Positions 12,674-59,970 of a stretch of 60,061 bases of DNA are shown in pieces. Origin of the DNA: Patescibacteria group bacterium (GTDB lineage: Bacteria; Patescibacteriota; Minisyncoccia; Phycocordibacterales; Phycocordibacteraceae); assembly GCA_038062175.1 (NCBI GenBank), contig JBBTXR010000001.1:75701-135761 (forward strand), given 5' to 3'. The notes under the pieces were generated by a model. It searched no databases. It was not told the DNA's origin and worked only from the letters and a program-made list of their open reading frames with translations. A program made the translations under genes and the position numbers. Positions within the stretch are counted from its first letter, which is position 1. Each line of letters begins with the position of its first letter.

Positions 12674-13282
12674 ATGCCTATCCCGCACCCAAAGACTCAA
12701 CGGACCTTTGTGATCATCAAGCCAGACGGCGTACAGCGTGCACTCGTCGGTGAGATCATCAAGCGCTTTGAGCGCACTGGCCTCAAGCTTGCTGCGCTTA
12801 AGCTCACCATGCTCGACTCAGATCGTATCTGGAAGCACTACAATAAAGACGATGCTTGGTTTATCAAGAAGGGAACCAAGATTGCTGAGGACCGTGCGGC
12901 GGCCGGCCTTTCTTCAGAGAAGGAACCGATTGAGTACGGTAAGGATATTATCCGCGCACTCGAGCGCTTTATGACCTCAGGACCGGTTGTGATGATGGTT
13001 TGGGAAGGGAATGAGGCAGTGAACGTCGTGAAGAAGATTGTTGGCGAGACGGAGCCTGCAACCTCTGATGTGGGTACGATCCGTGGTGACCTCACTATCG
13101 ACTCCTATAACATCGCAGCGATCGATGATCGTGCAGTACGTAACCTCATCCACTGTTCGGATGAGCCAGGTAATGCGGAGGATGAGATTAAGCTTTGGCT
13201 TACAGACGACGAACTCATCACCTATCGCCTCGTGGGGGACCAGATCCTCTACGACGTGAACCTTGACGGCATCATGGAGTAA
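12674..13282 (+). CDS. ndk: Nucleoside diphosphate kinase (long form)
   Basis: IIKPDGVQR, GTIRGD, RNLIHCSD. Confidence 0.95.
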   Translation: MPIPHPKTQRTFVIIKPDGVQRALVGEIIKRFERTGLKLAALKLTMLDSDRIWKHYNKDDAWFIKKGTKIAEDRAAAGLSSEKEPIEYGKDIIRALERFMTSGPVVMMVWEGNEAVNVVKKIVGETEPATSDVGTIRGDLTIDSYNIAAIDDRAVRNLIHCSDEPGNAEDEIKLWLTDDELITYRLVGDQILYDVNLDGIME

Positions 13283-13322: not shown

Positions 13323-13778
13323 CTAGAGGCAGTACCCGGTCGGGTCTTCCATGATCTTTCCAGAGGCCCGATCAACAATCCCTGTCTCGTATTCCGCATC
13401 ATTCGTACGGCAGTAGGTGATAAGGGAAACGGGCACCGAAGCAGCCGTAAGCGCTTTGCAGCTCGGTGCGCAGTACTGTCCGGCCTCGATCTCTCTGACT
13501 GAGTTTCCGAGCCGCTGCATGACGCTCCAGTGGCCTCCGCCACCTTCGATACGATCGGCGTAGAGCTCAAGTAGATAGAAGTCGCCCTCCTGCTTTCGGA
13601 TATAGACACCCGCAACACCTGGTTCAAGGTCATAGAGGTCCTCTACGAGACCGCGTAGCTCTGCATCAGCTTCGGTATAGCTGTCAGTCTCTGTAGGCGC
13701 AAGGAGCGAGATACTGTAGGCGACAAGGAGTGTAAGAATAAGGAGGCCCAGCACAGCAGGGAGTTGTTTTAGTTTCAT
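13323..13778 (-). CDS. Exported or membrane-anchored hypothetical protein with 4 Cys
   Basis: MKLKQL start followed by a TM/signal segment; the 13820 start would overlap the sRNA promoter. Confidence 0.7.
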   Translation of the reverse strand: MKLKQLPAVLGLLILTLLVAYSISLLAPTETDSYTEADAELRGLVEDLYDLEPGVAGVYIRKQEGDFYLLELYADRIEGGGGHWSVMQRLGNSVREIEAGQYCAPSCKALTAASVPVSLITYCRTNDAEYETGIVDRASGKIMEDPTGYCL

Positions 13779-13805
13779 CGTGGTTGGTGGGCGAATATAC
13801 CCCGA

Positions 13806-13814
13806 TGATATACT
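13806..13814 (+). promoter_or_regulatory. Extended -10 promoter for the candidate sRNA
   Basis: TG-A-TATACT; predicted +1 near 13821, the first base of the closing stem. Confidence 0.65.
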
Positions 13815-13820
13815 ACCCAC

Positions 13821-13959
13821 AGAGCCGTCCTCTCAAATGCAACTTGCTACAACTTCGGGAGGCTTATATTCACGCGTGCTCGAGAAGCATTTCATGCTCT
13901 GACAGTCGCGATGCGGCCACCCACCTGGCATACGAAAGTTGCCAGAAGGGGACGGTTCT
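13821..13959 (+). ncRNA. Candidate 6S-like RNA (rod with central bubble)
   Basis: 13-bp closing stem 13821-33/13947-59, 7-bp stem 13839-45/13936-42, central bubble, inner stems; G-U pairs favour the + strand; promoter before and hairpin after. Confidence 0.62.
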
Positions 13960-13997
13960 ATGAGTGAACCCACGCGAAAGCGTGGGTTCACTCATAG
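13958..13997. terminator. Perfect 18-bp hairpin ending the sRNA and the convergent ORF
   Basis: CTATGAGTGAACCCACGC-gaaa-GCGTGGGTTCACTCATAG. Confidence 0.75.
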
Positions 13998-14255
13998 TCC
14001 CCAAAGGGAATAGAAAAGAAGTGCGAATCCAAGAACGAAGAATGCAACGATCCCGATGCCTATTTTTCCCACATCGAGTTTGTTGCCTAGCAGAGAGAGT
14101 ACTGACCAGGTAAGAAGCAGTAGTCCAATAAGTGGAACTGAATAGAAGAACCACGGCGACTCCCATAACAAATTTCCACCGATATAGAACGTGGTCAGCA
14201 GAAAGACTCCTGTGAGAATGGAGAGTCCATGGAGCACTTTCATTGCTGGCGGCAT
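13992..14255 (-). CDS. Small membrane protein (about 3 TM helices)
   Basis: Three hydrophobic segments; TATACT 8 nt upstream; alternative start 14243. Confidence 0.65.
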   Translation of the reverse strand: MPPAMKVLHGLSILTGVFLLTTFYIGGNLLWESPWFFYSVPLIGLLLLTWSVLSLLGNKLDVGKIGIGIVAFFVLGFALLFYSLWGL

Positions 14256-14320: not shown

Positions 14321-15709
14321 ATGCCTCTTCGACTTACTTTCCACGGCGGCGCAGGAACTGTAACCGGTTCTAACTTTTTAGTAGAGAGCACAAAAGGAAA
14401 AGTGCTCGTCGATTGCGGTCTTGAGCAGGGAAGGGACTTTAGTGAGAAGCGGATGTATGAGCCGTTTCCGTTCGATGTGTCATCAATTGATGCGCTCGTA
14501 ATTACGCATGCGCACCTTGACCACATCGGCAGGGGACCAAAGCTGATGCGAGAAGGATTCCGCGGCGACATTTACATGACCCTTGCGACCCGGGATCTCA
14601 CCGACCTCATGCTCCGTGACAGTCTGAACATCCTCACCATGGAGGCTGAGAAGCGAGGGCTCCAGCCTATGTACCGAGAGGAAGATGTTGCTGCCTTTAT
14701 GGCCTGTGTAGAGGTGCTGCCGTATAGAAAGGAACGAGAGATTGCGCCTGGGATAACCGTGACGCTCAAGGACACGGGGCACATCTTGGGGTCGGCGAGC
14801 GTGACGCTTCGTTCTGATGACGGGACTTCACTTGCGATCACCGGTGACCTTGGAAATTCGCCGTCACCCTACCTACCTGACGTAGAGCCTATTACCGACG
14901 TGGACGTGCTCGTGATGGAGAGTGTGTACGGAGACCGTCAGCATCCGCATCTCGATCAACGGGTGCCGCAGCTTCGCGATACCTTGAATCGCGCCATCAA
15001 GCGTCGAGGCACCATCCTTATGCCGGCATTCTCGATTGAGCGCACCCAGCTCATGCTCTACGAGCTCTCGAACCTGATGGAGTCAGGGGAGGTACCGGAG
15101 ATCCCAGTCTTCCTCGATTCTCCGCTTGCGATCGGGGTTACCGAGATCTATGAGAAGCATGCGAAGGAGTATTTCAATAACGGTGCAAAAGAAGAGTTAA
15201 AGCGAGAGCAGAGTATCTTTAGGTTCCCGTTCCTTTCCCTTACTCACTCTCGAGAGGAATCAAGAAACATCGATGCGGTACAGGGACCAAAGCTTATCAT
15301 CGCAGGGGCGGGCATGAGTCATGGCGGGCGCATAGGACGCCATGAGGCAAAGTACCTCCCTGATCCCACAACCACTCTCCTTATTGTGGGCTATCAGGCT
15401 CCTGGGAGCCCTGGACGCTTGCTGCAGGACGGCTCGAAGAACGTAAAGATAGATGGGAGACCGGTACGGGTGCGAGCGAAGGTAGAAACGCTCTCAGCGT
15501 GGTCAGCTCACTCAGATCGCGATGGACTTCTTGAGTTTGCGAAGAAGGCGCTACCCAAAGCACATACGATATTTGTAGCTATCGGAGAACCATCAGCGGC
15601 ACGATTCCTTGCACAGCGGATACATGACTATCTAGGAGGGAAGGCGGTGGTGCCGAGTCTGGGGGATTCGTGGGTGATTGAGAAGGGGAAGGTGATAAGA
15701 GAACGATAA
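14321..15709 (+). CDS. MBL-fold beta-CASP ribonuclease (Ysh1/CPSF73-like)
   Basis: VTGS, THAHLDHIG, GHILGS, MESVYGDR, SAHSD. Confidence 0.92.
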   Translation: MPLRLTFHGGAGTVTGSNFLVESTKGKVLVDCGLEQGRDFSEKRMYEPFPFDVSSIDALVITHAHLDHIGRGPKLMREGFRGDIYMTLATRDLTDLMLRDSLNILTMEAEKRGLQPMYREEDVAAFMACVEVLPYRKEREIAPGITVTLKDTGHILGSASVTLRSDDGTSLAITGDLGNSPSPYLPDVEPITDVDVLVMESVYGDRQHPHLDQRVPQLRDTLNRAIKRRGTILMPAFSIERTQLMLYELSNLMESGEVPEIPVFLDSPLAIGVTEIYEKHAKEYFNNGAKEELKREQSIFRFPFLSLTHSREESRNIDAVQGPKLIIAGAGMSHGGRIGRHEAKYLPDPTTTLLIVGYQAPGSPGRLLQDGSKNVKIDGRPVRVRAKVETLSAWSAHSDRDGLLEFAKKALPKAHTIFVAIGEPSAARFLAQRIHDYLGGKAVVPSLGDSWVIEKGKVIRER

Positions 15710-23345: not shown

Positions 23346-23357
23346 TGTTACTAGATG

Positions 23358-23763
23358 TGGAGGTGGCGAGAGTCGAACTCGCGTCCGAATCCGTTTCTGA
23401 GGACGAGTCTACGACGCATAGCTAGTGTTGGTTGTTCGACAGAAGCATAGGAACGCTAGCGAAAACGCTTCTGCCTAATCCTGTTGTTTAGATCAAACGC
23501 CTAGGAGAACGTCGATCGATCACGTAGGTGATTCCGCCCCCACCTGCCGCTACGTGAACCGGGCAGGGAAGACGTCGCATAGGCGAAAGCGCGAAGCTTT
23601 TACGCGTAGGCGAACGCAAAGTCCTTAGCACCGAAGTACGGGGACTTTACGCTTGCATTCGAAGTGTTTGCAAGTATTGGTGTTTGCGTTGATATAGCGG
23701 TCAGCAAACTTCCGCTGCGTCGCACGTCTCTCAAAGTACAGACCGTCAAAGCCGGTCACCCCC
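23358..23763 (-). ncRNA. ssrA: tmRNA
   Basis: 5' GGGGGTG...TTTGAC; 3' T-arm GCGAGTTCGACTCTCGC plus CACCTCC-A with G3.U70; tag ORF at 23671-23600; next to smpB; CCA not encoded. Confidence 0.93.
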
Positions 23764-27946: not shown

Positions 27947-28020
27947 GCGCCCGTAGCTCAGTTGGTAGATGCAAGCGTCTTATACACGCTAGGTCGGGGG
28001 TTCGAGTCCCTCCGGGCGCA
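27947..28020 (+). tRNA. tRNA-Ile(UAU)
   Basis: Acceptor GCGCCCG/CGGGCGC-A; anticodon arm AGCGT-CT TAT AC-ACGCT; TTCGAGT T-loop. Confidence 0.88.
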
Positions 28021-36388: not shown

Positions 36389-36477
36389 CGGAGTCGCAGG
36401 GATTCGAACCCTGGAGGGGCTTTAACACCCCTACGTCATTAGCAGTGACGCGCTTTCGACCACTCAGCCACGACTCC
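36389..36477 (-). tRNA. tRNA-Ser(GCU)
   Basis: GGAGTCG/CGACTCC-G; CGTCA-CT GCT AA-TGACG; long variable arm. Confidence 0.95.
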
Positions 36478-53510: not shown

Positions 53511-53581
53511 AGCGGGGTAGAGGAGAGGTACCTCGGGAGGCTCATAACCTCCAGACGCCAGTTCGATTCTGGCCCCCGCAA
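53511..53581 (+). tRNA. tRNA-Met(CAU), initiator-like
   Basis: A1xA72 mismatch, A11:U24, GGAGG-CT CAT AA-CCTCC. Confidence 0.88.
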
Positions 53582-59895: not shown

Positions 59896-59970
59896 GCCGG
59901 CGTAGTTCAAGAGTTAGAACGAGGGACTCATAAACCCTAGACGGTGGCGCGACTCCACCCGCCGGCACCA
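59896..59970 (+). tRNA. tRNA-Met(CAU), elongator-like, atypical loops
   Basis: GCCGGCG/CGCCGGC-A-CCA; CT CAT AA loop; T-loop CGCGACT. Confidence 0.82.

Follow-up and report, generated by a model that had tools for sequence, protein, structure and literature searches.

6S RNA is a small RNA that mimics an open promoter and restrains RNA polymerase, and it acts as a global regulator. CPR bacteria have tiny genomes and few known regulators. We asked whether a short gap between two minus-strand open reading frames (ORFs) of one such genome harbors a 6S RNA, as an initial annotation made from the DNA letters had proposed, or an element of some other kind. The window that we analyzed, meaning the whole 60,061-nucleotide stretch of DNA, yields a tmRNA and four tRNAs and nothing else when scanned with Rfam at the gathering threshold, and we found no published report on 6S RNA in CPR bacteria in the open-access literature. 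Our comparisons suggest that positions 13821-13959 of the plus strand encode a compact, divergent 6S RNA (SsrS homologue) of this CPR bacterium, a reading to which we assign a probability of about 0.88. The features on which this assignment draws are collected in Table 1.

Table 1. Features of the RNA gene, its surroundings and related loci. Coordinates are those of the window unless a genome or locus is named.
Feature	Position	Strand	Details
Candidate 6S RNA gene, core	13821-13959	+	about 139 nt, free-standing
Extended -10 element, TG-n-TATACT	13806-13814	+	TG 13806-13807, TATACT 13809-13814; read from sequence
Closing stem, 13 bp	13821-13833 with 13947-13959	+	minimum-energy fold, RNAalifold consensus
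Bubble-proximal stem, 7 bp	GCAACTT 13839-13845 with AAGTTGC 13936-13942	+	RNAalifold consensus
Central bubble strands	13846-13856 (11 nt) and 13923-13935 (13 nt)	+	read from sequence
Inner stem	GGGAGGC 13857-13863 with GCCACCC 13916-13922	+	with A.A mismatch
Variable terminal arm	13864-13915	+	CGCG/CGCG stem 13873-13876 with 13907-13910; apical hairpin 13886-13898 (AGCAT/ATGCT)
Most conserved block, GCCACCCACCTGG	13916-13928	+	inner-stem 3' strand and start of 3' bubble strand
Alternative 3' hairpin	13925-13945 (CTGGCA 13925-13930 with TGCCAG 13940-13945)	+	minimum-energy fold
Trailing GAAA-loop hairpin	13959-13996		17 pairs, 13959-13975 with 13980-13996
Nucleoside diphosphate kinase gene	12674-13282	+	
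Beta-CASP/metallo-beta-lactamase-fold ribonuclease	14321-15709	+	462 aa; Pfam Beta-Casp, Lactamase_B, RMMBL
tmRNA	23355-23763	-	Rfam gathering scan
Four tRNAs	27947-28020, 36389-36477, 53511-53581, 59896-59967		Rfam gathering scan
Second R2 matches in other genomes	G182:C42:18366-18552, G131:C5:26887-27050, G221:C17:364-494, G039:C5:28924-29071 (also L055:1743-1909)		

Promoter and boundaries of the RNA gene

The RNA gene lies in a 213-nt gap (13779-13991) flanked by the minus-strand ORFs 13323-13778 and 13992-14255. The extended -10 promoter claimed for it was borne out, and the -10 layout is common to homologues: a TATAAT-like hexamer matching at least 5 of 6 positions occurs in the 32 nt upstream of 65 of 66 homologous loci, and within the genus a -10-like hexamer sits 5-7 nt ahead of the aligned 5' end in 32 of 33 loci. 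A generic promoter scan of the locus found no sigma-70 site (a -35/-10 pair) because the -35 element is absent and the extended -10 is present alone. Judged by the distance to the -10 element, transcription would start at about 13821.

The longest call for the upstream minus-strand ORF, 13323-13820, opens at GTG 13820 and would overlap the 6S promoter. The ATG at 13778 is the likelier start of this ORF; the 151-aa product that begins there has a signal-peptide-like N-terminus and no Pfam match.

Downstream of the core stands a trailing hairpin that had been described as a perfect 18-bp element. We counted 17 pairs, or 16 if T13959 is assigned to the closing stem. Neither strand carries a U-tract, so the 3' end of the RNA is uncertain. 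The convergent 87-aa ORF 13992-14255 has its stop codon inside this hairpin, which may be a two-way terminator shared by that ORF and the RNA gene. Hairpins of -10 kcal/mol or lower were found within 60 nt downstream of 63 of 66 homologous loci, many of them with T-runs. In an Rfam scan of the locus at E<=10, the sole matches were meaningless ones to microRNA and CRISPR-repeat models, all on the trailing hairpin.

The length claimed for the RNA, about 140 nt, holds for the 139-nt core, which falls below the range of 160-200 nt given for 6S RNAs in a passage of PMC8414754, but a transcript that retains the terminator hairpin would measure about 176 nt. As alignment A4 shows, the genus has lost the segment GGAUAUUAUC/GGUAAUAUC in the middle of the closing stem, which the rest of the order retains.

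Conservation across the genus, order and phylum

BLAST against relatives aligned the RNA over its full length in three genus genomes, at 72-75% identity, and over part of it in further genomes; the window's own genome holds a single copy. An alignment of eleven copies (A1), which RNAalifold folds into a rod with 19 of 42 pairs compensated, was used to build a covariance model, R1. This model matched exactly once in 91 of 101 genus genomes (75 of 78 high-quality genomes), and one genus genome with 5% contamination had three R1 matches. In the order, weaker single R1 matches were obtained in 36 of 141 genomes, and these relatives share an invariant GGGAG...GCACCCACCU core, a hairpin directly after it, a -10 box and a terminator. 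R2, a broader model built from 40 sequences, matched 125 of the 141 order genomes (110 of 124 high-quality) and 31 of 150 genomes sampled across the phylum. The RNA has a single-copy gene of its own, and this gene is conserved across a Patescibacteria order.

In a named collection, most records with the genus-specific motif carried the label Kaiserbacteria, Paceibacterota, Parcubacteria or Patescibacteria. Where the pattern CACCCACSTGGCA-N6-9-AGTTGC matched named non-CPR genomes, we attributed the matches to chance, about 35 being expected by our own estimate; 19 non-CPR pattern loci that were scanned gave no 6S match at the gathering threshold.

A rod-shaped fold with compensatory changes

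Folding of 13821-13959 on the plus strand gave -53.6 kcal/mol (z = -4.2), and 0 of 200 shuffles were as good, compared to z = -2.0 and 6 of 200 shuffles on the minus strand. R1 scored the locus at 120.3 bits on the plus strand versus 18.0 on the minus strand, a comparison that is not independent since R1 was built from plus-strand sequences. Two G-U pairs in the closing stem become A-C mismatches if read on the minus strand. The fold and model scores indicate that the RNA is encoded on the plus strand.

All of the stems, the bubble strands, the apical hairpin and the alternative pairing that the initial annotation had described were found (Table 1), although the inner stem contains an A.A mismatch that it had left out. 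The 11/13-nt open bubble depends on formation of the bubble-proximal stem. The 5' strand of that stem (13839-13848, plus strand) reads GCAACTT and can be extended to GCAACTTGCT; in the RNAalifold consensus, 13839-13848 pairs with AAGTTGC 13936-13942 plus GGCA 13926-13930 across a bulge.

Covariation was measured in a genus set of 33 copies (31 distinct sequences), for which the alignment was fitted to the model and therefore leans toward the modelled structure. In the resulting fold, 94.2% of cells were paired and compensatory changes were found in 25 of 42 pairs, a result that 0 of 500 shuffles reached, while slid controls of the same alignment had 34-48% of cells paired. Compensation is clear in the closing-stem and terminal-arm helices despite the model-fitted alignment: the closing stem has 7 of 13 pairs compensated and 95.8% of cells paired, and helices 5 and 6, which belong to the terminal arm, show compensatory changes in 6/6 and 3/3 pairs. 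The GGG of the inner stem is invariant in all 31 distinct genus sequences, and the outer positions of this stem (13857-13863) covary with 13916-13922. The bubble-proximal stem is paired in 100% of cells and 4 of its 6 pairs never vary; because it is almost invariant, covariation is unable to confirm it, and compensated variants are rare (loci L020 and L015).

The terminal arm differs in length and sequence across the order, and it contains a GA-rich, box C/D-like internal loop. In the window this loop (13881-13885 and 13899-13903) is the variant CGAGA...CUGAC; GAUGA...CUGA occurs in 11 of 33 order-level copies and GGUGA...CCGA in 27 of 33 genus copies. Its appearance is that of a symmetric loop built on tandem sheared G.A pairs and not of a kink-turn. 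A kink-turn with an L7Ae-type partner was considered and rejected: by eye the loop is symmetric (C-GA-U versus U-GA-C) with no 3-nt bulge, and PF01248 (L7Ae family) was not found in the window's own genome. A passage of a preprint (PMC11702757) uses 6S as a control family without K-turns.

Relationship to the 6S RNA family

The Rfam 6S model, RF00013, gave no match to 13700-14100 at E<=10, its best match in the window's own genome lay elsewhere (E=6.19), and no other 6S candidate was found in that genome. The gathering cut-off of 46.4 bits was passed in none of the 141 genomes of the order, as expected from the claim that standard annotation misses this RNA. Since RF00013 does not score the locus, membership in the 6S family rests on homology via intermediates. 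Across the 141 order genomes, the relaxed RF00013 search produced ten matches at E<=10, and although the window itself was unmatched, seven of the ten, including the best five, fell on homologues of the RNA and on the same strand. Three of these seven were recognized by R1 coordinates and four by DNA inspection, and R2 confirms all seven; the remaining three (E = 0.25, 2.0 and 9.1) were located elsewhere. In an independent, permissive Rfam scan of 20 order loci, two further RF00013 matches fell exactly on the element, at 26.9 and 26.0 bits.

In the cmscan alignments of homologues, GGGAG falls on 'GGGagccc' and CACCCACCUGG falls on 'gggcaCCCACCUgg', both parts of the RF00013 consensus, with a 16-nt 5' bubble strand before GGGAG and the 3' bubble strand after CACCCACCUGG, so that the invariant core corresponds to the Rfam 6S consensus at both flanks of the central bubble. 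In the window, the conserved bubble-flanking sequences are GGGAGGC and GCCACCCACCTGG, the latter identical to 'caCCCACCUgg' of the Rfam consensus, and 13846-13856 occupies the position of the 16-nt unpaired stretch ahead of GGGag. CCCAC and UGGCA are invariant in the genus, and CACCCACCU varies little or not at all across the order.

The same 150 phylum genomes provide a bridge to accepted family members. RF00013 matched 22 of them at E<=0.1, with 7 above the cut-off; nine loci were matched by both R2 and RF00013, one of which (G345, 46.8 bits) exceeds the Rfam cut-off, while 13 RF00013 matches had no R2 match and 22 R2 matches had no RF00013 match. The 6S RNAs that Rfam detects in other Patescibacteria classes score 23-47 bits with RF00013, and 7 of the 150 phylum genomes pass the cut-off compared to 0 of 141 in this order. 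By these sequence comparisons, a chain of homology links the window RNA to Rfam-accepted 6S RNAs, and the order-wide family, the core match and the coinciding sub-threshold matches support the 6S identity originally claimed. The RNA is an extension of the known 6S family and not a new kind of RNA.

With the established members of the family (RF00013; E. coli 6S, B. subtilis 6S-1 and 6S-2), the window RNA shares a free-standing gene, the core GGGAG...CACCCACCUGG flanking the bubble, and a covarying rod made of a closing stem, central bubble and terminal arm. It also shares a 3' strand that can refold to a hairpin once the 5' strand is removed, predicted here and described for 6S RNA in a passage of PMC12005410. 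Besides the short core, the differences are that members from this order score below the Rfam cut-off, that many of them carry the GA-rich loop in the terminal arm, and that predictions for the free RNA already show a stable 3' hairpin. Ms1 RNA of mycobacteria, which binds core RNA polymerase, offers an analogy as another structured small RNA; PMC11077062 describes it as associating with RNA polymerase.

Competition between two pairings of the 3' strand

The alternative 3' hairpin and the bubble-proximal stem are mutually exclusive. Both pairings are possible, as had been claimed, but the predicted ground state of the free RNA is the CTGGCA/TGCCAG hairpin, with pair probabilities of 0.89-0.97 versus about 0.03 for the 7-bp stem. 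The hairpin conformer (-53.6 kcal/mol) is favored over the rod (-50.4 kcal/mol) by 3.2 kcal/mol, and it is likewise favored in all 33 order-level homologues, where the open form lies 1-8 kcal/mol higher.

Each of the 33 order-level homologues has, starting at the CC that immediately follows ACCCA, a perfect hairpin of 5 bp or more, so the proposed switch hairpin is conserved across the order. Its inner pairs differ between homologues (CCUGGC/GCUAGG, CCUAAG/CUUAGG, CCUCGU/ACGAGG and CCUGAGC/GCUCGGG). Within the genus, the hairpin core GGCA/UGCY is conserved and the outer pairs occur in a sub-clade only; hairpin covariation in the genus is not significant, with its score reached by 39 of 500 shuffles. 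When the 5' arm and loop of the hairpin were held single-stranded, 27 of 33 homologues paired at least 3 nt of the 3' arm with the 5' strand, and the re-paired 5' strand in the order homologues adjoins the closing stem. On average 3.76 nt of the 3' arm re-paired, and shuffling of the 26 nt that precede GGGAG lowered this to 1.43 nt. The competing sequences are lineage-specific, YCUAG in most families and GCAACUUGC in this genus, and because they differ between lineages, the competition between the two pairings itself appears to be the conserved trait. The predicted pairings thus give the RNA a potential for refolding of the kind known from 6S RNAs. According to a passage of PMC12005410, 6S release involves a new structure that pRNA synthesis makes possible, a hairpin in E. 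coli and a collapse helix in B. subtilis, and the predicted competition matches this mechanism.

In these predictions, the stable 3' hairpin of the free RNA is the main departure from textbook 6S RNA. It also raises a bolder idea, which we regard as doubtful, that members of this order carry the 3' bubble strand of 6S RNA as a constitutive hairpin, predicted to be stable in all 34 members examined. If so, the polymerase would be offered a single-stranded A/U-rich template opposite a folded arm, resembling a fork junction, and the enzyme would have to melt the hairpin to bind or would use some other contact. Release would then amount to falling back to the ground state, with no refolding forced by pRNA, and the RNA would represent a distinct minimal mode of 6S action in cells with very few regulators.

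The sequence TGGCA-N8-TTGC at 13926-13941 resembles the -24/-12 elements of sigma-54 promoters. Relative to the sigma-54 consensus, TGGCAC-N5-TTGC, its spacer is 2 nt too long; we set aside a sigma-54 promoter mimic, and the resemblance is probably due to chance.

Alternative explanations

The alternative that deserves most weight, though we consider it unlikely, is a lineage-specific housekeeping small RNA that does not bind polymerase and instead serves another protein or base-pairs through the invariant GCAACUUGC, with the GGGAG/CACCCACCU motif and the rod shape held in common with 6S RNA by ancient divergence or by convergence. Such a role would fit the absence of any RF00013 score for the window, the predicted free form without an open bubble, the stricter conservation of GCAACUUGC than pairing alone demands, and the conserved GA-rich loop in the terminal arm, which lies outside the Rfam 6S consensus. 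However, the loci detected by our models and by RF00013 form a continuous overlap that reaches a locus above the cut-off, the matching core falls exactly at the position of the 6S bubble-flanking stem, and the genome offers no other 6S candidate. The window's own genome encodes RNase P RNA, whereas 6S and SRP RNA are undetected in it, which leaves two housekeeping RNAs unaccounted for, and we considered a divergent SRP (4.5S) RNA because no SRP RNA is detectable there. Like bacterial 4.5S RNA (RF00169), the window RNA is small, rod-like or hairpin-like, single-copy and near-universal, and neither RF00169 nor RF01854 finds another candidate, both being unmatched in the window's own genome and in 41 genus genomes; RF00169 was also unmatched in 41 of 41 order genomes. 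The protein partner is missing, however: the Ffh M domain (PF02978) was found in 0 of 41 genus genomes, no SRP54-type GTPase scored above the cut-off in the window's own genome, and PF00448 gave only a marginal P-loop match in 1 of 101 order genomes. The apex that binds Ffh is conserved in SRP RNA, whereas it is the most variable part of the window RNA. With Ffh and FtsY absent from the clade and both models unmatched, we rejected an SRP RNA, the chance of which we regard as negligible. The whole SRP pathway appears to be absent from the clade, as already known for Parcubacteria, which a passage of a 2015 report (PMC4508563) describes as lacking the signal recognition particle (ffh and ffs).

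Two readings that would make the element part of its surroundings fare little better. In 32 of 33 genus loci the beta-CASP ribonuclease gene lies within about 70-450 nt beyond the RNA in the same orientation, which would suit a leader or attenuator acting on it in cis; the trailing hairpin, which also terminates ORF 13992-14255, would suit an antisense or terminator element of the flanking minus-strand ORFs. The RNA is, however, set apart from the next gene by a strong hairpin, and in the window by an opposite-strand ORF as well; across the order, where the RNA itself is conserved, just 6 of 33 loci retain this neighbor, and where the ribonuclease gene follows directly it has a second -10-like box of its own. 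These observations make a cis-acting role very improbable. The ribonuclease may be of interest for another reason: according to PMC10578484, RNase J1 of B. subtilis, a beta-CASP enzyme, processes 6S RNAs, so a processing link between the neighboring enzyme and the window 6S RNA is possible. The initial annotation had itself named a REP/MITE element as an alternative, and long inverted repeats within a 213-nt intergenic region would suit a repeat of this type or a chance palindrome. Against this stand one copy per genome, with few exceptions, a conserved position and compensatory changes; copy number rules out a REP/MITE repeat, and we give next to no credence to either form of this reading.

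Proposed mode of action and significance

For the favored reading, a 6S RNA, the steps of action can be sketched from established 6S biology. The RNA would be transcribed from its extended -10 promoter and would bind the housekeeping sigma-70-type RNA polymerase holoenzyme as an open-promoter mimic. Pairing of the 5' GCAACUU with AAGUUGC would allow 13846-13856 and 13923-13935 to form the open bubble. The 5' bubble strand, 13846-13856, is presumed to be the template for pRNA initiation; polymerase would read along it toward 13839 to make a short pRNA, and 13839-13848 is presumed to be the end of the template. The pRNA would displace AAGUUGCCAG, which would snap onto CUGGCA (13925-13930) to form the 3' hairpin, and collapse of the bubble would release the polymerase.

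Nearly every genome of the order (125/141) keeps a 6S gene that goes unseen at the Rfam threshold (0/141), and its recognition fills an annotation gap. Alignments A3 and A4 can serve as seeds for an improved 6S model. The window RNA would be one of the shortest natural 6S scaffolds for probing what polymerase binding and pRNA-driven release need.

Four genomes of the order carry a second, weaker R2 match about 100-350 nt from the first and on the same strand (Table 1). These second matches may represent tandem 6S paralogues like 6S-1 and 6S-2.
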